NCBI GenBank assembly: GCA_965198235.1
Contig: OZ240248.1
Span: 288,001-352,000, forward strand
Direction: 5' to 3'
Length of the DNA: 64,000 bases
From: Candidatus Poribacteria bacterium
Lineage (GTDB): Bacteria > Poribacteria > WGA-4E > WGA-3G
Of the stretch, positions 521-64,000 are shown in pieces; the stretch's first letter is position 1; each line of letters starts with the position of its first letter. The notes under the pieces are model-generated. The model was given only the letters and a program-made list of their open reading frames with translations. It did no database searches and was not told where the DNA came from. A program made the translations under genes and the position numbers.

Positions 521-1774
521 TCATTTCACCCGTTGCCCTGCTTGAAACACCGCAGCCACTCGGCTAAAAGCATCTACGTCGTTCGTTGGATCGCTCTCGA
601 AAGCGACGAGGTCAGCGATTTTGCCCGGTGCAATGGTCCCGAGGTCGTCCGCCATTCCGATTGCCTCGGCGGAAATGCGGGTCGCTGAGATAAGTGCTTC
701 CGCAGGCGTAAACCCGACTTGGACAAGTAGTTGCAAATCGTAGTCGAGATGACCGAATGCGAGATTACCAACGCCTGAATCGGTGCCGGGGACAATCCGA
801 TCGCGGAGCCCGTAGTCAAGCATACGTCGCATCACATCAAGGCGTACTTCCGCCCGCGTTTCAAGTCGTTGCAATTCGGTCGCTTCGTCAGGGGAAATGG
901 TATCCGTGTCACGTTTCGTACGGAGTTCAACGATGCGAGGATAACCCGTCCACGCTTGAAGGGTTGGGCTAATCCAGATGCCGGATTCTGCCATCATCTC
1001 GGCAATTTTGGGATCAAACCGGAGTTCACCATCTGGGTCGAGGAATTCCGCATGCTCCATCAGATCAATGCCTGCTTCAACCGCTCGCACCATCGACTCT
1101 TTCGCTCGGCAATGCGCTACCGTAAGCCGATGAAAATGGTGCGCCTCATGGACAGCGGCGTGCAACTCAGCGACGGAGTAACTGGCGCGTCCCGGAATCG
1201 TCCCGGCAGTTCCTCCACCTGATGCCATGATTTTGATGTAATCTGCGCCTTCGTGAACCAAGCGGCGGACCGAACGTCGCATCTCAGCCTCGCCATCCGC
1301 TGTCTCGTTACACATGTGGAAGTGCCCACCCGTGCAAGTGATCGGTCGTCCGCTCACTAAGGTGCGCGGACCCGGAATATAACCGCGTTCAAGCCCTTCC
1401 TTGAGTGTGAATCCTACCTTGTTCCTTGCACCGTGTTCGCGAAGGGTCGTAATCCCTGCGGCGAGATGGCGTTGCAGATTCATCGCGCCTGTCAGCACCA
1501 TCATCTCATCGGTTTCGGAGAACATCTGAATATAATTTCGTCCGTCACCTGCGAGGCTCAGATGTGTATGCCCATCAATGAGTCCCGGCGTGATGTACGC
1601 GTCTCCAAGGTCGATAACTTCTGCATCAAGGGGTGTCTGTTTCGTAATCTCTTCTTGATGTCCAACGGCATCAATCCGACCGTCGGTGACAAGAATCGCC
1701 TGATCGGTTTTAGCGTATGTACTTACCCCATCGATGAGCCGAGCGGCACGGATCTGAACAGTTTGATTTGACAT
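521..1774 (-). CDS. Metal-dependent amidohydrolase (Xaa-Pro dipeptidase-like)
   Basis: PGLIDGHTH, GADYIKIMASGG, GTDSG, GKIADLV. Start moved to MSNQ (1774) because the upstream extension is repeat DNA. Confidence 0.9.
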   Translation of the reverse strand: MSNQTVQIRAARLIDGVSTYAKTDQAILVTDGRIDAVGHQEEITKQTPLDAEVIDLGDAYITPGLIDGHTHLSLAGDGRNYIQMFSETDEMMVLTGAMNLQRHLAAGITTLREHGARNKVGFTLKEGLERGYIPGPRTLVSGRPITCTGGHFHMCNETADGEAEMRRSVRRLVHEGADYIKIMASGGGTAGTIPGRASYSVAELHAAVHEAHHFHRLTVAHCRAKESMVRAVEAGIDLMEHAEFLDPDGELRFDPKIAEMMAESGIWISPTLQAWTGYPRIVELRTKRDTDTISPDEATELQRLETRAEVRLDVMRRMLDYGLRDRIVPGTDSGVGNLAFGHLDYDLQLLVQVGFTPAEALISATRISAEAIGMADDLGTIAPGKIADLVAFESDPTNDVDAFSRVAAVFQAGQRVK

Positions 1775-1880
1775 ATTTTTAACTATGGCCCCCTGGACTG
1801 CCCTCCAAATGTAAAGCAAAGACAAATTATGCCATTTAAGGCATAATTTCATTACGGGCAGGTTTCTGGTTAATTCGCGG
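1775..1880 (-). repeat. Host repeat E1, filled allele carrying a 39-bp hairpin insert (1807-1845)
   Basis: Minus strand TTAACCAGAAACCTGCCCGTAATGAAAT-[insert]-GGAGGGCAG..CCATAGTTAAAAAT; homologous to 7233-7300 and 45985-46094. Confidence 0.85.
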
Positions 1881-1934
1881 CTGGGTTAAATCTATTGACG
1901 GTTCTTTTATCACGGTATTTGAGGGTCTCTTTTT

Positions 1935-7211: not shown

Positions 7212-7232
7212 CCTATTTTTCTCTCCTTTCAG

Positions 7233-7300
7233 ATTTTTTAATTTATGGCTGCTTGCTCTGCCCTCCATTTCATTTCGGGCAGGTTTCTGGTTAAGTCGCG
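7233..7300 (-). repeat. Host repeat E1, empty allele
   Basis: TTAACCAGAAACCTGCCCGAAATGAAATGGAGGGCAG..CCATAAATTAAAAAAT, i.e. 1775-1880 without the insert. Confidence 0.85.
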
Positions 7301-7386
7301 ACTGGAATTGAGGATTTGTACCGTCAGCAAGATAAATAGGATTTTTCAGTTACCGACCATACGCAACAAAATACGATTACACTGTA

Positions 7387-9444: not shown

Positions 9445-10272
9445 TCACGACTTATCTGACAGCGAACTACCATCCCGATACGAGAAAACCAATGGCAGGT
9501 GCGCATCATCCGCCAACACATCACCGGCCTCCAATTTTCCGAACACTTCGTCGGGTAGTGCGCTCCTTTTACCATTGAACGTGGCATCCTCCGGCATAAA
9601 AAGCATGGCAAACGCACGGCGAGGGCCCGTCGTCATATTGGGTCCTGCCGCATGGGCGACCATCCCGCTGATGAATACGCCGGCTCCCGCTTTCATCTCA
9701 GCGGCGTAGGGTTCAATCTCCGCCCACTGTGGATATTCGCGGAACAGCTCGCCGATTCCTGCTTCCCCAAGACTGCCACCAACCTCAAAGCCGCTCGTCT
9801 TATGTGTGCCGGGCAGAAAATACAAACAGCCGTTCTGAACGGTTGTATCGTCGAGTGCTACCCAGAACATGATCGCCTGATGTGAATAAAACGGGTCGTA
9901 TGGATTATCAACATGGAAGTTCGTTGGATTTGCCCACGGTTGCTTAACCATCGCGTGGTCGTGATACAACCGCACACCCGAAGTGCCGGCGAGGTCTGCC
10001 GCCAACTTACCCAACTCAGGGGCGAGAATCAACTGTTTAATCTTCTCGCTCGTCTTCCACAAATTGACACATTGAACGAAGACGTTCTTGTAGTAACCGT
10101 CTTCTCCGCCTTGATTGTGATAGGTATCAGGTCGGCTCACATGCTGCGCGATAGCCTCGTCAACTGCATTCTGCCACGACGACAACTCGGAACCTTTCAG
10201 GAAGTCGTCAATAATCAGAAATCCATTTTCACGGTAAAATTCAATCTGATCGCTCGTCCGTTGTGTATTCAT
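9445..10272 (-). CDS. PhyH-family dioxygenase
   Basis: FYRENGFL, FHVD, WVALDD, NGCLYFLPGTH, AHAAGPN, RRA; start MNTQR. Confidence 0.9.
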   Translation of the reverse strand: MNTQRTSDQIEFYRENGFLIIDDFLKGSELSSWQNAVDEAIAQHVSRPDTYHNQGGEDGYYKNVFVQCVNLWKTSEKIKQLILAPELGKLAADLAGTSGVRLYHDHAMVKQPWANPTNFHVDNPYDPFYSHQAIMFWVALDDTTVQNGCLYFLPGTHKTSGFEVGGSLGEAGIGELFREYPQWAEIEPYAAEMKAGAGVFISGMVAHAAGPNMTTGPRRAFAMLFMPEDATFNGKRSALPDEVFGKLEAGDVLADDAHLPLVFSYRDGSSLSDKS

Positions 10273-10360
10273 CTTTTTAACTATTAGGTTTCTGGCCTGC
10301 CTTCCAAATGTAAAGCATTCTCGCTGCGAAGCAAAATTATGCCATAAGGCATAATTACAG
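10273..10360 (-). repeat. E1-type repeat with the hairpin insert, itself containing a 16-bp GCGAAGC micro-repeat
   Basis: CCAAATGTAAAGCA-TTCTCGCTGCGAAGCA-AAATTATGCC versus canonical CCAAATGTAAAGCA-AAGAC-AAATTATGCC. Confidence 0.8.
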
Positions 10361-45926: not shown

Positions 45927-45984
45927 AGGCTTGAATCACTCTTTATGCTGCAAGGACTGCCCGCGTTCCCAAACCCCGTACAGA

Positions 45985-46094
45985 ATTAACCGGAAACCTG
46001 CAAGTTAACCATCAACTCGTGCTTTAACATTTATAACGGAGGCGAGTTGATGGTTAAAACGGACGCAGCAGACCAGGAGCCCATAAATTAAAAA
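45985..46094 (+). repeat. Host repeat E1 carrying a 53-bp palindromic element (46005-46057); abuts mazG-like ATG
   Basis: ATTAACCGGAAACCTGC..[TTAACCATCAACTCG...CGAGTTGATGGTTAA]..CCCATAAATTAAAAA-ATG. Confidence 0.8.
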
Positions 46095-46379
46095 ATGACA
46101 ATTGAAGCGTTTCAGAAACAGATTGAAGATATCTATTACACACGCGATGTTGAGCGCGGGGTGCCTCTCACCTTCACATGGTTCGTTGAAGAAGTCGGTG
46201 AGTTGGCAAAAGAGATCCGCAAACAGCCACAAGACTTGACGCGACTGCGCGAGGAATTCGCCGATGTTTTTGCATGGCTCGCTACATTAGCAAGCCTACT
46301 CGGTATTTCTCTTGAGGATGCCGCGAAAATCTACGCAGAGGGCTGCCCGAAGTGTAGCGCAACCCCCTGTCGCTGTTAG
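46095..46379 (+). CDS. MazG-like nucleotide pyrophosphohydrolase
   Basis: EEVGELA, EEFADV, C-terminal CPKC..PCRC. Confidence 0.88.
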   Translation: MTIEAFQKQIEDIYYTRDVERGVPLTFTWFVEEVGELAKEIRKQPQDLTRLREEFADVFAWLATLASLLGISLEDAAKIYAEGCPKCSATPCRC

Positions 46380-49341: not shown

Positions 49342-50097
49342 CTATTCTGCATTTTTCACGATTTGTGCGAACGATTCCGCCTCAAGACTTGCGCCGCCAA
49401 CGAGTGCACCGTCTACATCGGGCTGCGCCATGAGTTCCGCTGCATTCTCCGGTTTAACGCTGCCACCGTATTGAATACATATCTGCGACGCGACTTCTGC
49501 CGAGTGCCCGTTCGTTAGCAAGCCTCGAATAAAGTTATGGACTTCCTGTGCTTGGGCAGGCGTGGCTGTCTTCCCAGTGCCGATAGCCCAAACCGGTTCA
49601 TAAGCGATGACGCAGGACGAAAGGTCAGCGGCGGATAAGCCAGCAATGCCGCCCGTAACGTGGCTCTTAATCACTGCTTCTGTTTGTCCAGCTTCCCGTT
49701 CTTCGAGTTGCTCACCGACGCAGATAATTGGCTTTAAGCCGTGCGCTAACGCCGCTTTCACTTTTTGGTTGACGCTGTCATTCGTCTCACCGAAATATTG
49801 GCGCCGTTCCGAATGCCCGATAATGACGTAATCACACCCGGTATCTTTCAGCATTGGCGCGGAGACTTCGCCGGTAAATGCCCCGCCATCCTCCCAATAG
49901 ACATCTTGAGCGGCGAGACGAATGTTGCTGCCCCCTATGGCATCACTGACAGCGGAGAGCGCAGTAAACGGCGGTGCAACGATGACTTCAACGCCGGTGG
50001 CATCCGCAACTAATGCTTTTAACGCCGTTGTGAGCGCGACCGCCTCTGAAATCGTTTTGTTCAGTTTCCAATTTCCCGCAATGATAGGTATTCGCAT
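49342..50097 (-). CDS. tpiA: Triose-phosphate isomerase
   Basis: [34 protein letters not shown]. Confidence 0.98.
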
Positions 50098-50270
50098 ATT
50101 TTTAACTATTTTTTAAACTATTAACTTTGGTTAATTCCAACCCGTCCCAGGGGTTCAGAGGGTTTTGACTTCACCGGCAACCATTGTGGAACGAAATTTT
50201 GCCCACACGCGGCAAAATTTGTCTTTGCTTTACATTTGGAACAATGCCCAGATTTCCATAGTTAAAAAAG
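50098..50270. mobile_element. Repeat mosaic with TTTTTAACTAT/ATAGTTAAAAA inverted ends and filled hairpin core
   Basis: CATTGT-GGAACGAAAT-[40-bp insert 50198-50237]-GGA-ACAATG; homologous to 51391-51586. Confidence 0.75.
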
Positions 50271-50367
50271 CAGCAGGACATTCTCACCGCGAAGCAGACG
50301 CACTGCGGATTTTACCGAGGCATCCCTCTGCCAAGGCGTTCCGACGGCTCCCGTTAGGGAAACCAGA

Positions 50368-51372: not shown

Positions 51373-51390
51373 AGGACAAATAAATTCCTT

Positions 51391-51586
51391 TTTTTAAACT
51401 ATTAACTCTGAGCATCCTTCCACTACATTTTACGATGGTTGTCGGTACAGTTAGAAACCTTTTGAAACCTAAAACAGGCTCATAACTTAGATGAAAACCG
51501 TTGCAGAATGAAATTATGCCTTAAATGGCATAATTTGTCTTTGCTTTACATTTGGAGCAACGCCCAGATTCCCATAGTTAGAAAAT
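51391..51586. mobile_element. Repeat mosaic with inverted ends and filled hairpin core
   Basis: CGTTGC-AGAATGAAAT-[39-bp insert 51515-51553, identical to 1807-1845]-GGA-GCAACG. Confidence 0.78.
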
Positions 51587-51819
51587 CCTTTGTAAATATT
51601 GTGCCGTTACAGGGCTTTCATTTAACAGCAAGTTTTAGAAACCTGCAAGCCACATTGACAGAAACGAACATGCGGGGCTATTCACAATAGGCTTGCAAGC
51701 GATGCCCCTTGATTTGCTATTATCTAAGTTTCACGATTTACGTCTTTTTAATTATACCCCAAAGTGTAGTAAATTGCAAGTGCGTTGTTAAGTCCATAGC
51801 CGTTCTGAAGCAATTTGAC

Positions 51820-59890: not shown

Positions 59891-61498
59891 ATGAACGAAA
59901 ATGGAAATAAACCAAAGGTCAGCCTCGGTCTGCTTTACGGGATTGTCATTGCTATTGTTGCTGGGGCAATCATCGGTGGGTTCGCACCAGGCTTTGCTGT
60001 CCACACAACAATACTGGGTGAAATATTCTTAAACCTACTGAAGATGATAGTAGTGCCGCTCGTCATTTTGTCTATGATAGTCGGAATAACGAATTTAGGC
60101 GATATTCGCAACATCGGTTCCATCGGGGGACGAACTGTCCTGTACTACATGGCGACAACTGCTATTTCCGTTCTCATTGGCATGATTCTCGTCAACATCA
60201 TCTTGCCGGGGAAGGGACTATCACAAGGCGAAGAGCGGGCTGATCTCAGTTACACACTCTCTGGTCCTGAGATGCTCACTGTTGAGTTGAACGCGGAATT
60301 CAATCGGACATATAACAATAAATATGTCATCACCCTCGTTGACCAGAATGTGCGTGGCGAAGTCGAATCAATTTCTGGGACAACAGTCACGGTGAAATCG
60401 TGGCAACCGCTATCCGAAGATGCCCATTACGTCGCAACCGACAGCGGCGAACGCTTATTGTTCATTGAGGGTCGTCTTGAGAGGGTAGATCCCCAAAATA
60501 CGGGTAAAGGTATTAATATTGGCTTGCCGATTGCCACAAGAGTGTCCGGCAAAATGGAACGGACTATGGGGAGTACCATCAAGGAGGTGTTTCTCGGCAA
60601 CGAAGAGACCGGCAAAGAGGGAATGATCCCCTCAAACGTCTTCAAAGCGATGGTGCGAACCGATATTCTGCCCTTAATCTTTTTCTCACTTCTCATCGGT
60701 GCCGCTCTATCCATGCTTGGGGATATCGGTAGACCTGTCGTCGCCGTGATTTCGGGGTTAAATGAGGCGGTGATGAAACTCGTTCACTGGATAATGTATG
60801 TCGCACCGGTTGGTATCTTCGGCTTAATCGCTGGTAGGATCGGTGAGGCAAAAGGGTTCGCAGGTTTTTGGCCCGAACTCGTAGCGGTGGGCAAGTATAG
60901 CGCGACAGTCGTGTTAGGACTCGGCGTACACGGTGCCATCGTTTTACCGATACTCCTGTTGATCTTGGGACGCAGAAATCCGCTCAACTACTTCAAGGGC
61001 ATGGCAACCGCCTTACTCAACGCCTTTTCGACGGCGAGTTCAAGTGCAACTTTGCCGCTAACGATGGAAGGGGTTGAGAATCAGAACGGTGTCTCCAGAC
61101 GTACCTCCAGTTTTGTTCTTCCGTTGGGAGCAACCATTAACATGGATGGAACTGCACTCTATGAGGCGGTCGCGGTCATGTTCATCGCACAGGTCTATGC
61201 GATTTCCATGGATCCAGCGCAACAAGTTGTTGTTGTGCTTACCGCTACCTTGGCAGCAATAGGGGCCGCAGGGATTCCGGAGGCAGGGCTTGTCACAATG
61301 GTTATCGTACTCAGAGCCGTGGATCTTCCAATTGAAGGTATAACGCTGATCCTCTCCATCGATTGGCTACTTGACCGGTTCCGTACCACAGTTAACGTCT
61401 GGGGTGACAGCATCGGTGCAGGCGTGATTGAGACGTATGAATCCAGAGATTCAACTGATGCCCCGGCAACCGTTGGAGCGGTGCCCAGAGGCAAATAA
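59891..61498 (+). CDS. Dicarboxylate/amino acid:cation symporter (DAACS, GltP-like) with loop insertion
   Basis: FSTASSSATLP, GATINMDGT, GAAGIP, DRFRT. Confidence 0.92.
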   Translation: MNENGNKPKVSLGLLYGIVIAIVAGAIIGGFAPGFAVHTTILGEIFLNLLKMIVVPLVILSMIVGITNLGDIRNIGSIGGRTVLYYMATTAISVLIGMILVNIILPGKGLSQGEERADLSYTLSGPEMLTVELNAEFNRTYNNKYVITLVDQNVRGEVESISGTTVTVKSWQPLSEDAHYVATDSGERLLFIEGRLERVDPQNTGKGINIGLPIATRVSGKMERTMGSTIKEVFLGNEETGKEGMIPSNVFKAMVRTDILPLIFFSLLIGAALSMLGDIGRPVVAVISGLNEAVMKLVHWIMYVAPVGIFGLIAGRIGEAKGFAGFWPELVAVGKYSATVVLGLGVHGAIVLPILLLILGRRNPLNYFKGMATALLNAFSTASSSATLPLTMEGVENQNGVSRRTSSFVLPLGATINMDGTALYEAVAVMFIAQVYAISMDPAQQVVVVLTATLAAIGAAGIPEAGLVTMVIVLRAVDLPIEGITLILSIDWLLDRFRTTVNVWGDSIGAGVIETYESRDSTDAPATVGAVPRGK

Positions 61499-61506
61499 TT
61501 TAAAAA

Positions 61507-63741
61507 TTGAACACGCAAAACGAACCGAATCCACAGCAGCCAGCACTTAGCGTCACATCAATTCTCGCAATTATCAGCGTCGTGCTCGCCACGGGATGGA
61601 TAGCCTTTGCCTATTACAAAGGCACTGCCAACAGCAGCCGAATACTGTTGCTGCATCCAGTCGTGCCGATGCTGCTGATTGTCCTGCTCATCCGCGTTTA
61701 TCGCTGGATCGACCTAAAGAGCATAGTGATTCTTGAAATACTGATGATCGCTGTGTGGGTTTTTATACGTTTGTTGGGCGTGTTGACCCCTTTCATTTTA
61801 GGGTTTGGCTTCGCTTATATCTTTAGGTTTCTCTGGAATGCTCTCCCATTCAAAGCCAGATACCTACGCGGACTCGCGACGGTAATAATTGTCCTTGTGT
61901 GCGGCAGTTTGCTTTTCTACACTGGGAAACAGGTTAGTAAGCAAGCAACCCAGATGGGGAGTGGGTTACTAAAGTTTTATCATGAGATTGTTCTGCCTTA
62001 TGTCGTTGGTGAGACGTTTGAGGCGGTCGCTATCAGTGTCGATTTTCCTACTATTGAGGATGATGTAGCAGGAAGAAACAATCAAACGACTCCAGCAGAA
62101 ACATTCTACCTTGGTACGAACCACGGCATTTATAAAATTCAACAGGATGCAGAGAGAGAGTTTGTTCGTATTGGTATCACAAACGGCGTGCTTCTCGGCA
62201 AACCGATACAAGCACTTGCAGCAGCTGGAAACGTTATCTACGCTGGTACGCAGAGTGGGTTATATCGGTATTACAAGGCATTGCCTGCTGATGTCACTGA
62301 AGCGATTGACGGTGATGTAACAGACATCCAAAACGTCACACCGAGAATATGGCACAAGGTACAAGCGACCCCTTTCGATACTCTTTCCGTTCAAGCGATC
62401 AACGTTCCGAATTGGAATAATACCCAGATTTATGTTGGAACACAAAAAGGACTTTACAGCAGTAAGAATTTAGGAAAAACATGGCGTGAGGTCGCCCCTC
62501 AAATTTATAGTGAAAGGTCCATCGTCAGTATTGTTTCTATTGTGGATACGAATGGTGATAGGACAATTTATGTCGCCAGTACAGCGATAATTGATGCGAT
62601 GCCCTCAGAACGGATAGTTCCCATGCCTACGGTCGCAACAGTGCATTGGTACCTGGAGGATTCCGCTCTTGAGTGGAATCCGCTTCCTTCTATAACGGAT
62701 TCGGTTTATGCACTGGCAAGTGGAGGTAAAACGTGGATTGTCCCGCAAGCCTCTATAGGCTTGCGCTTAGAAGACCCCTCACAGGTGTTTGATATTGAAC
62801 TGTACGCCGGCACGCCCGATGGTCTCTATGAATGGCATCGTCTTGGCACATGGCGAAAGACGGAAGGTACTGCTGCAGTCTCGTTGTTAGCGTCGGCACC
62901 TTCTGGTGTATACATCGGTAATGGAACCGCTATCCTGCATCGTGCCGTTCCTACAGAGGGATGGCAGCCATTTGCTACACGGAACGAAGGGATTAGTTAC
63001 ACCTATAGGGACGAGCCTATTGTCCAGCAGGTGAAAACATACTTGACCGAAAGAATTCCAACAATCGCCCAAACCGGTGGTGAGGCTATCAGGGAAGGGG
63101 TTCAGTTCGCGGGTTCGATCGCTTTTGGGTTTGGCGGGTTTTTAGCCACAGTATCACTCGCGTTCATTGTGTTTGTCTATGCAAGCCAGTCGTTTGACAA
63201 TTATTTCCGCAGTTTCATCACGCTGGTCCCTGAACTTCATCGTGAAACTGTCAAGACCTACCTGCGCGAAATTGATAGGAATCTACAACAGTTCCTAAAA
63301 GGACAAGTAACCGTCATCGCGATTGTGTCAGTGGTCTCCTGTATCGCGTACAGCATTATCGGTGTGCCGTTCGCATTGGTTATTGGGGTACTCGCCGGAA
63401 TCTGTAACGCTATACCGACCTTTGGACCCTTTATCGGCGGCGGTTTCGCCTATGTGGCGATGCTAATGGGGCTGGCGGCTGGGGATTTCGGTATAATTGA
63501 TTTCCTCATTCGCAGTGCATTCGTGTTGGGTGCCATTCTTGGCATTCAGATGCTTGACAACTCATTGATTTCACCTAAAATTATGAGCACCGCTGTTAAT
63601 GTAGATCCGCTGCTCATTATGTTTGCTGTGATTGTTGGGGCAGCTGTACTCGGATTTTGGGGTGTATTGCTTGCAATTCCTATTATTGTTGTGGTAAAAT
63701 CGGTTATTGCCGTTTCTCAATCTTTAAATGATCGAATCTGA
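61507..63741 (+). CDS. AI-2E (PerM) family transporter with inserted beta-propeller-like domain
   Basis: LTPFILG..AY, FLKGQ, NAIPTFGP, DNSLISPKIM, GVLLAIP; central YxGT..GLY repeats. Confidence 0.82.
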   Translation: MNTQNEPNPQQPALSVTSILAIISVVLATGWIAFAYYKGTANSSRILLLHPVVPMLLIVLLIRVYRWIDLKSIVILEILMIAVWVFIRLLGVLTPFILGFGFAYIFRFLWNALPFKARYLRGLATVIIVLVCGSLLFYTGKQVSKQATQMGSGLLKFYHEIVLPYVVGETFEAVAISVDFPTIEDDVAGRNNQTTPAETFYLGTNHGIYKIQQDAEREFVRIGITNGVLLGKPIQALAAAGNVIYAGTQSGLYRYYKALPADVTEAIDGDVTDIQNVTPRIWHKVQATPFDTLSVQAINVPNWNNTQIYVGTQKGLYSSKNLGKTWREVAPQIYSERSIVSIVSIVDTNGDRTIYVASTAIIDAMPSERIVPMPTVATVHWYLEDSALEWNPLPSITDSVYALASGGKTWIVPQASIGLRLEDPSQVFDIELYAGTPDGLYEWHRLGTWRKTEGTAAVSLLASAPSGVYIGNGTAILHRAVPTEGWQPFATRNEGISYTYRDEPIVQQVKTYLTERIPTIAQTGGEAIREGVQFAGSIAFGFGGFLATVSLAFIVFVYASQSFDNYFRSFITLVPELHRETVKTYLREIDRNLQQFLKGQVTVIAIVSVVSCIAYSIIGVPFALVIGVLAGICNAIPTFGPFIGGGFAYVAMLMGLAAGDFGIIDFLIRSAFVLGAILGIQMLDNSLISPKIMSTAVNVDPLLIMFAVIVGAAVLGFWGVLLAIPIIVVVKSVIAVSQSLNDRI

Positions 63742-63758
63742 GCACCGTTCCATTACAT

Positions 63759-63934
63759 TTTTCTAACTATGGGAATCTGTTAACCATCGAAGAAATCCGC
63801 AGAAACACCCAAGCAAAAACCCTCGTGCTTTAACATCTATAACGGAGTCGAGTTGATGGTTAAACTGCTCCACTACGTTGAAGAAACATCGGATTTAGTC
63901 TGGGAATAGACTAAATCCATTCCTTGTATTACAT
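63759..63934. repeat. Repeat mosaic: E1 terminus, palindromic element interrupted by R3, R5 hairpin
   Basis: TTCTAACTATGGGAATCTG; TTAACCATC-[R3]-CTCGTGCTTT..GAGTTGATGGTTAA; GGATTTAGTCT..AGACTAAATCC. Confidence 0.8.
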
Positions 63935-64000
63935 TGCAAAAACCCCCGTCCCAGTAACGGGCGGGGACCCCGGTTTTCAGTGAATTCCAACCCGCTCCAG

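Follow-up and report, generated by a model that had tools for sequence, protein, structure and literature searches.

Introduction

How can a 39-bp hairpin sit inside one copy of a short repeat and be missing, at exactly that position, from another copy on the same piece of DNA? This question is raised by positions 1775-1880 of a 64,000-nucleotide stretch of a Candidatus Poribacteria genome (positions 288,001 to 352,000 of contig OZ240248.1, assembly GCA_965198235.1; hereafter "the window"). The organism is a sponge symbiont with a genome of 5.12 Mb plus a 44-kb contig at 48% G+C, and the amidohydrolase gene downstream of the locus has orthologues of 89-95% identity, every one of them in Candidatus Poribacteria metagenome-assembled genomes from sponges. 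An earlier note, made from the letters of the window, had read this locus and five further places as a hierarchy of very small mobile DNAs that target one another site-specifically; all six places are as described there. Our analysis identifies the host repeat as a dispersed, non-coding element of about 75 nt (hereafter "the base element"), of which 1775-1880 is one copy. These abundant, genus-restricted nested hairpin repeats are very likely mobile or at least exchangeable DNA, and on balance we regard them as a lineage-restricted family of non-coding, non-autonomous, dispersed and nested elements that is probably mobile. No description was found in the literature on miniature inverted-repeat transposable elements (MITEs) or repetitive extragenic palindromes (REPs) of Poribacteria or on the module sequence, which suggests, for the literature as searched, that this "Russian-doll" repeat has not yet been described for this group. 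How repeats too small to encode anything (REPs, small dispersed repeats (SDRs) and others) spread is, to our knowledge, still unsettled.

The base element

Profiles of the left and the right arm were built from 62 copies and run with nhmmer against the element's own genome at E ≤ 10. They returned 474 left-arm and 435 right-arm matches (265 and 148, respectively, at E ≤ 0.01), which combine into 378 left-right pairs. Pairs with a left-right spacing of at most 9 were classed as empty (253 copies), the remainder carrying extra sequence between the arms; about 114 non-redundant copies are filled or composite. The host repeat is thus far commoner than the earlier note could see, and the original observation was understated.

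In order, the base element consists of a left arm (..TTCACCAGAAACC), a 6-bp stem, a conserved 13-nt loop (G-N-A-A-Y-G-N-A-R-T-G-G-A) and a right arm (G-CCCAG..ATAGTTAAAAA). The copy at 1769..1884 (minus strand) reads in gene orientation, from 1884 to 1769, as left arm CCAGCCGCGAATTAACCAGAAACC, stem TGCCC, loop start GTAATG, module AAATTATGCCTTAAATGGCATAATTTGTCTTTGCTTTACATTT, loop end GGA, stem GGGCA, right arm GTCCAGGGGGCCATAGTTAAAAAT and ATG. Its stem CTGCCC/GGGCAG lies at 1856-1861 / 1798-1803 on the plus strand, and its right arm reaches the ATG (1774-1772) of the amidohydrolase gene.

Stem and loop statistics were drawn from 227 aligned empty copies. Positions C23, C24, G30, A32, A33, G35, A37, T39, G40, G41, A42, G48 and C51 are invariant in these, as are A60, T61 and T65 of the right arm. 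The variable stem (the five positions between C24 and G30 together with the five after A42) is paired in 97.9% of cells, compared to 24-43% in controls in which the partner column was displaced by one or two. Between 2 and 4 Watson-Crick pair types are seen at each pair position, and the stems come in 54 combinations, the commonest being ATCGT/ACGAT (57), TGCCC/GGGCA (24) and ACCGC/GCGGT (19). The loop positions Y34 and R38 covary as well (C:G in 148, T:A in 75 copies) and close a G-N-A triloop above A33:T39 and three purine-purine oppositions (G30-A42, N31-G41 and A32-G40). The very stable DNA mini-hairpin d(GCGAAGC) is built around a C-GNA-G core, and the heptamer GCGAAGC itself is found on the opposite strand of one of the nested modules (level 2, below). 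Since G:T pairs in the stem (12) are no commoner than A:C mismatches (11), nothing favours an RNA-type tolerance of wobble pairs.

Among the 435 right arms 247 are singlets, and 94 head-to-head doublets of about 155 bp are formed; the outer ends of the doublets are inverted (TTTTTTAACTAT../..ATAGTTAAAAAA), and half-units are the commoner form.

Nested modules and the filling of the apex

The empty state occurs at 7215..7305 (minus strand), with the same stem type as 1769..1884 (CTGCCC/GGGCAG) and the short loop GAAATGAAATGGA; on the minus strand, the empty form at 7233-7300 reads ..CTGCCCGAAATGAAAT|GGAGGGCAG.. across the position in question. What the earlier note called a 39-bp insert in the filled copy is correct insofar as the same flanks enclose 39 extra bases. 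The better unit, however, is a module of 43 nt (1807..1849, minus strand; level 1) that takes the place of the 4-nt apex N-A-R-T of the host loop, with a net gain of 39. It has the form AAAT-TATGCC-TTAAAT-GGCATA-ATTT followed by GTCTTTGCTTTACATTT, that is, a 10-bp hairpin (AAATTATGCC/GGCATAATTT) plus a T-rich tail. Hairpin variants include TATGCC.., TAGGTTTCC.. and TTTGCC-CACACGC-GGCAAA. A 22-mer of the module has 3 matches in the window, where 0.00 are expected, and 44 exact matches (66 at up to 3 mismatches) in the whole genome; chance does not account for this. A permissive pattern finds 82 copies, with YGAAAT on the left in 80 and GGA on the right in 77. Tabulating the insertion points therefore gives a fixed apex position in 80/82 level-1 copies, so that the insertions are neither random nor few.

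Further modules sit inside or beside this one. A level-2 module of 16 nt (..TGCTTCGCAGYGAGAA..) lies between AATTT and TGCTTTACA of the level-1 module in roughly 20-30 copies; its 13-mer TTCGCAGYGAGAA occurs 117 times (up to one mismatch) in many unrelated contexts that have only a TGC on the left in common. A level-3 hairpin (GTCCCGCA..CTATAG..TGCGCA) is found within level 2 in about 12 copies, and about 10 copies have it in the base loop itself (GAAAC-ATTGTCC..). A 53-bp palindrome occurs in 62 complete copies, after the right stem or elsewhere, with its loop in forward orientation in 16, in reverse orientation in 16 and unclassified in 30. Other modules that occupy fixed spots are GGTTTTTGCTTGGG (251 occurrences at up to one mismatch) and GGGGTCCCCGCCCGTTACTGGG (30 at up to two mismatches). 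Every module has self-complementary ends and lengthens the helix of its host. Very small modules are thus nested at fixed positions genome-wide.

Tandem arrays of short units (CAGTCGG.., CCGATAG.., CTGACAACTGATAACTG..) also fill intergenic spacers and vary among species, for instance in genome G014 opposite locus L129 12854-13132 and in genome G004 opposite locus L130 16089-16250. In the genome studied here such arrays likewise host the level-2 13-mer and the 43-nt module.

The junctions look like apex replacement rather than clean insertion. Filled copies always carry GAAAT, even in stem subfamilies whose empty form is CGAAGT or CGTAGT. In the ATCGT subfamily, 51 of the 55 empty copies have C34, with loops CGAAGT or CGTAGT; the filled copies keep C34 in 10/15, yet CGAAAT precedes the module in all of them. 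The combination C-A-A at positions 34, 36 and 38 occurs in no empty copy of this genome. It follows that N36-T39 give way to the module, whose AAAT (the left half of its 10-bp stem) is its own.

Filling appears to have happened many times. The 69 strictly defined filled copies fall into at least 20 stem types, roughly in proportion to 236 empty ones (filled/empty: ATCGT 15/55, TGCCT 6/14, ACTGC 7/7, GTTGC 7/3). Outside the loop, 32% of the nearest neighbours of filled copies are filled themselves compared to 23% expected, a value reached by 40 of 1000 label shuffles, and for 51 of the 69 no filled copy is closer than the closest empty one. The filled state is at most weakly clustered, with the reservation that the best matches in this comparison have a median of only 35/46, and filling appears recurrent.

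Distribution and orthologous loci

A strict pattern, CC-N5-GNAAYGNARTGGA-N5-GNNC, was used to scan 64 genus genomes, many of which are closed, together with 40 from the sister genus and 71 from other genera; the reversed pattern served as control (0-1 match per genome). It matches 219 times in the genome studied here, and 63/64 genus genomes hold 1-72 copies each. In the sister genus only 1/40 genomes is positive, with two adjacent head-to-head copies (G096:C1:2873772-2873887) that may be a transferred doublet. In the other genera 1/71 genomes shows a single match (G038, family f7). The family defined by the strict pattern is confined to one genus. A looser loop motif is found in all 64 genus genomes (4-337 per genome); it is at background in the sister genus and raised in some genomes of distant families (G037 44, G047 20, G055 13). 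A 16-mer of the level-1 module is present in 56/64 genus genomes and at background elsewhere. Module and empty-host counts do not track each other (35 vs 7 in G173, 5 vs 57 in G156).

Relatives differ at orthologous loci, both in whether the element is there and in whether it is filled. Of about 40 Poribacteria orthologues of the amidohydrolase gene, most are preceded by a short spacer that contains AAGGAG and no element. Orthologues L015, L022 and L023 carry the element in its empty form (..CGTAATGTAATGGAGGGCAG..CCATAGTTAAAAAT-ATG) where this genome has it filled; L001, L014 and L029 show other arrangements. The 270-bp spacer at 50098-50367 measures 20-25 bp in 8/12 relatives compared. The pair of elements at 51385-51591 is missing from G018, where TCCTTT occurs once; here it stands on both sides of the pair. 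An independent empty site for the same pair comes from an RNA-library contig of run X4, which joins 51385 to 51586 without the pair across 6 shared letters. At the element at 45975, G018 and G014 carry a level-2-like module where this genome has the 53-bp palindrome, and at one orthologous copy a GGGGTCCCC-type module is present in G014 and absent here. In 16 further clusters (two 20-kb regions, five relatives) we observed wholesale turnover of spacers. The base element is gained and lost between species.

The relatives hold a second repeat family with the same loop (GGAACGAAGTGGA), the end AAATTAAAAA-ATG (..CCGCAAGGAAAATTAAAAA-ATG) and a longer tail. Its copies adjoin the same start codons as the base element does here (L111, L114 and L116-L118 upstream of the orthologue of ORF 46097, and many spacers of L137-L146), and it also hosts the 43-nt module (G018, in the spacer orthologous to L130 14880-15119). 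Elsewhere in this genome, a 155-bp doublet at L129 889-1047 (G000:C1:3102889-3103047) takes the place of about 58 bp that four relatives have conserved.

Gene starts

About 30% of the copies abut a start codon, a point absent from the earlier note. Taking open reading frames (ORFs) of at least 80 aa, with random places and the antisense strand as controls, 99 of the 435 right arms lie at offset 0 from an ORF start and 141 within -2..+4, where 124 of the starts are ATG. An ORF start lies within 40 nt of 232/435 right arms, compared to 495/2000 random places within 46 nt. The bin of 0-4 nt holds 104/378 paired copies compared to 45/1000 random places and 5/378 in antisense. No ORF start is found within 150 nt of 127/378 copies, and 71/94 doublets face a gene on one side only. 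Where the element abuts an ATG, the AAGGAG of the orthologues is gone, and the right-arm context before the ATG holds no Shine-Dalgarno sequence at the usual spacing. The family thus appears to rewrite gene starts, displacing the usual Shine-Dalgarno region.

The element probably has a role at gene starts or in gene expression. The right-arm bases A60-T61-A62-R63-T64/T65 allow a reading as xATAxT, at 6-7 nt upstream of the ATG in an A-rich context. The right arm might supply a -10-like box for leaderless or near-leaderless transcripts, and copies may be kept beside genes in this way. If it does act as promoter or leader, mobile DNA would have re-wired the expression of more than 100 genes in an uncultivated sponge symbiont. 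The case for such a role is weakened by several observations. No -35 box is evident, the tRNA genes of this genome use TTGACA-N17-TATAAT promoters, and a scan for consensus sigma-70 promoters gave 12 sites, not above the 8.7 +/- 2.7 of shuffled sequences. Nearest-neighbour folding returns the expected nested hairpins with z of -0.8 to -3.0 against shuffles, a modest gain, and +1.9 for one copy; folding energies alone do not single the hairpins out, and the structural case is made by covariation. In the four metatranscriptome runs the region is present as contigs only, in which neither transcript starts nor strand can be read, for which reason we draw no conclusions on expression from them; the depth over the repeats, a sum across copies and organisms, is high.

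The promoter/terminator scan marks the module as terminator-like at 50194-50220 and 51511-51536. Readings of module or loop as sigma-54 or extracytoplasmic-function-type promoters were dropped by eye for wrong spacing. At a tRNA-Gln gene (G000:C1:1634262-1634333, minus strand) a base element with a GGGGTTTTTGCTTGGG module ends 11 nt before the mature 5' end; unlike the other tRNA genes, this one has no TTGACA-N17-TATAAT within 110 nt.

Mode of spread

The earlier note saw no transposase in the window, and indeed the six genes of this genome that match PF01797 (Y1_Tnp) all lie elsewhere. Three are IS200/IS605-type tnpA genes (C1:119838-120191, 4381488-4381841 and 4792784-4793137, all on the minus strand; two nearly identical), each followed by an ORF starting MPKFHRTE.. 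that we take to be tnpB. Compared by eye, their upstream sequences show hairpins followed by GATGTAG and no base-loop motif, so the comparison gives no sign of the ends that an IS200/IS605-derived element (PATE) would have in common with its resident IS. The other three (C1:3853637-3854113, minus; 606813-607274, minus; 1898763-1899227, plus) encode proteins of 161-171 aa and are labelled here as similar to REP-associated tyrosine transposases (RAYT-like) by their Pfam Y1_Tnp match, gene size and repeat-flanked single-gene context. They are flanked on both sides by hairpins plus TATGTCTATAGA repeats (47 copies here). This 12-mer occurs in all 65 genus genomes (2-89 copies), and TATGTCTATAGA together with the RAYT-like genes looks like a classical REP-RAYT system separate from the base element. 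The RAYT-like protein, found in 47/65 genus genomes, does not track the base element.

We favour a scenario in which a trans-acting factor would recognise the conserved loop and the hairpin shape and spread the base unit as mobile DNA, while exposed hairpin apexes would acquire further self-complementary modules by apex replacement, hairpin upon hairpin. A number of results weigh against it. No parent insertion sequence (IS) was found in the own genome, where the 7 pairs of right arms that face outward at distances of 557-3335 bp have ordinary ORFs, or no ORF at all, between them. Within 700 bp of the three RAYT-like genes there is no base-element arm. A RAYT query found nothing in the complete genomes G159, G156 and G168 (72, 57 and 51 strict copies) and a match in G155 and G016 (1 copy each), and Y1_Tnp is present in 148/176 genomes of the phylum irrespective of the element, including 35/40 of the sister genus. 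At the 94 doublets, repeats of at least 5 bases that could be target-site duplications (TSDs) were seen in 7, compared to about 11.5 expected from mismatched flanks. The outer parts of the copies have a median best match of 35/46, with about 10 of these positions possibly belonging to the flank; because copies are not near-identical, no very recent burst is seen. The apex-replacement junctions, finally, are compatible with repair or template switching as well as with transposition. The earlier hierarchy of small mobile DNAs holds in that modules sit at fixed positions and orthologous loci differ; the independent mobility of each module and its "targeting" of the next do not follow. The case in which the motifs would be the ends of a catalogued IS did not arise, as no IS with these ends was found in the own genome.

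Repair without any dedicated enzyme is a possible but doubtful alternative. Here the modules would not be mobile themselves; broken or stalled hairpin tips would be repaired from another copy, by ectopic gene conversion or microhomology-mediated template switching, and the cassettes would spread as a by-product. Such a process would account for a filling that replaces the 4-nt apex and brings its own AAAT with Y34 of the subfamily and the stem kept, for self-complementary modules that extend the host helix, and for mosaic elements in which stem, arm and loop types assort almost freely; the lack of TSDs and of any enzyme that correlates with the elements points the same way. It has difficulties with the level-2 13-mer, whose 117 contexts with only TGC in common are hard to reach by homology-guided copying, with the short flanking homology inside the loop (left side about 5-8 nt, right side 3 nt) and with the independent variation of module and empty-host counts. 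We consider it quite unlikely that the elements are instead of the type of REP doublets forming hairpins (REPINs), with single-stranded hairpins moved by an HUH (Y1) transposase, be it RAYT or IS200/IS605 TnpA. The genome does hold both kinds of Y1 gene, three of each; the 94 head-to-head doublets resemble REPINs as defined in PMC3116915, and TSDs are lacking. A conserved loop, covarying stems and the G-N-A triloop, given the known stability of such triloops, would suit recognition of single-stranded DNA, and CTATAG is common to the level-3 module and the RAYT-flanking repeats. Yet the RAYT-like genes stand next to hairpins plus TATGTCTATAGA and not next to the base element, the RAYT query finds nothing in three complete genomes rich in the element and does find genes in two that are poor in it, and the sister genus has Y1_Tnp without the element. 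Singlets outnumber doublets, and there is no replication-strand bias (231 vs 198 copies; genes 1165 vs 1111), with a GC skew that is itself lopsided. RAYT as the mover of the base element was rejected on the basis of the flanks and the co-occurrence.

A cis-regulatory signal that is not mobile at all, such as a structured 5' leader or the operator of a regulon, with the inserts as lineage-specific expansions of a functional RNA, is very improbable in our opinion. The fixed orientation to the downstream gene with its sharp offset-0 peak at start codons, the strong stem covariation with invariant loop bases, the GGA motifs in the loop and in CCCAGGAG, and the likeness of the level-1 module to a weak terminator (hairpin plus T-rich tail) would all suit such a signal. 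In contrast, the orthologous genes of sister species stand without the element or with other repeats instead, presence and absence with intact flanks have already been seen in part, and copy number runs from 1 to 219 within one genus with absence from the sister genus. The many copies without a nearby ORF start, the doublets that face a gene on one side only and the equal frequency of G:T and A:C do not fit either, and Rfam 15 gave 0 matches in the window at the gathering score; at E ≤ 1, a search of 11.7 kb with four elements returned only PreQ1 (E 0.39), away from the elements. To return to the mobile family that we favour, a much bolder version of it, which we consider unlikely, would have a transposase-independent process or a novel enzyme swap or implant self-complementary cassettes at hairpin apexes. 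Portable gene-start cassettes, a terminator-like hairpin plus a -10 box set for leaderless or near-leaderless transcripts, would thereby have replaced the native ribosome-binding regions of more than 100 genes in one symbiont lineage.

However the modules spread, the family offers a clean natural experiment, with discrete modules and exact junctions, several levels of nesting, filled, empty and absent states at orthologous sites in 64 genomes, and copy numbers from 1 to more than 200. For the annotation and binning of Poribacteria, the repeats explain assembly breaks and hypervariable intergenic spacers.

Comparison with known systems

Among the closest parallels in behaviour, along with REPINs and MITEs of the Correia or ERIC kind, are the SDRs of cyanobacteria such as Nostoc, in which SDR5 has an exact insertion point in the HIP1 octamer, after its third and before its fourth nucleotide (PMC4390886). 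As in the base element, very small modules are set precisely inside other repeats and no enzyme is known; the 16-nt level-2 module, with 117 copies in many contexts, falls into the same size class. Phylum and sequences differ; in the present family it is hairpin apexes that act as hosts, stacking reaches up to three or four levels, and the host element abuts start codons. SDRs of Nostoc were reportedly described by Elhai et al. in 2008 (Genome Res 18:1484), the resemblance to the base element being one of behaviour only.

The earlier note had also named REP/RAYT systems as a parallel, and membership in these does not hold, with RAYT-like genes flanked by a different repeat and no RAYT match, with the query used, in complete genomes rich in the element. 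REPINs (Bertels and Rainey 2011, PMC3116915) are likewise short extragenic hairpins with hundreds of copies and frequent inverted doublets, have a conserved motif beside a variable complementary stem, and cluster as copies insert into or beside others. By the criterion given there they are mostly inverted doublets with a singlet:doublet ratio below 2, whereas that of the base element is about 2.6. The base element also differs in that no RAYT is flanked by it and the two do not co-occur across genomes, and in its fixed orientation and distance to start codons.

MITEs such as Correia/NEMIS of Neisseria and ERIC of enterobacteria are non-coding, 100-160 bp long, with inverted ends and hundreds of copies beside genes; effects on expression have been reported for the Correia/ERIC type, as have longer variants with internal insertions at fixed sites. 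In the base element TSDs are not seen in general (TCCTTT at 51385-51591 is the single clear case), a parent IS was not found, and half-units, each with its own covarying hairpin, are commoner. Putative mobile promoters, homologous upstream regions that are said to precede unrelated genes within one genome (Matus-Garcia et al. 2012), are another related idea, as copies of the base element likewise precede unrelated genes; the base element is much shorter and more structured, and its promoter activity is putative.

A reading as integron attC sites was suggested by ends resembling RYYYAAC/GTTRRRY. It was rejected: half-units predominate, and no integron integrase was found, the best TIGR02249 score being 46.9 bits against a cut-off of 265, a level that generic recombinases reach in all 14 control genomes. 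The plasmid collection gave no match to the element. On the features tested, the base element does not qualify as a member of the REP/RAYT, MITE, attC or Rfam classes.

Other copies in the window and minor observations

The second contig of 44 kb holds, at C2:32803-32935, a letter-for-letter copy of the chromosomal doublet plus flanks at C1:808218-808350; rather than being a plasmid, the contig may represent a chromosomal stretch that was duplicated or assembled in an alternative way. The cumulative GC skew of C1 has its minimum at about 0.37 Mb and its maximum at about 4.05 Mb, giving arms of 3.7 and 1.4 Mb, and the gene-strand bias of C1 is almost nil (1165 vs 1111 long ORFs).

The right half of a base element at 10267..10345 (minus strand), with an unrecognised left arm, carries the level-1 module with the level-2 module inside; the interruption noted earlier at 10313-10333 reads ..TGCTTCGCAGCGAGAA.., and as the same nesting recurs elsewhere it is not a one-off. 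At 45975..46096 (plus strand) a variant host element adjoins the ATG at 46097 and contains the 53-bp palindrome at 46005-46057, as first observed. The 270-bp spacer comprises a right-arm fragment at 50098..50140 (minus strand), adjoining the ATG of ORF 49342-50097, and a filled element at 50159..50275 (plus strand) with stem ATTGT/ACAAT, whose module hairpin at 50198-50237 is compensated (TTTGCC-CACACGC-GGCAAA instead of TATGCC..GGCATA). In the head-to-head pair, the left partner (51385..51460, minus strand) is empty and the right partner (51476..51591, plus strand) is filled; the latter has the stem GTTGC/GCAAC and bears, at 51515-51553, an insert identical to that upstream of the amidohydrolase gene. 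A right arm alone at 61470..61512 (plus strand; nhmmer E 1.6e-5) ends near 61507 at a TTG/ORF start. The last copy, at 63715..63995 (minus strand), is a composite of 275-281 nt in which a base element encloses a GGGGTCCCC.. module, the 53-bp palindrome with a GGTTTTTGCTTGGG module breaking into it, and another right arm.

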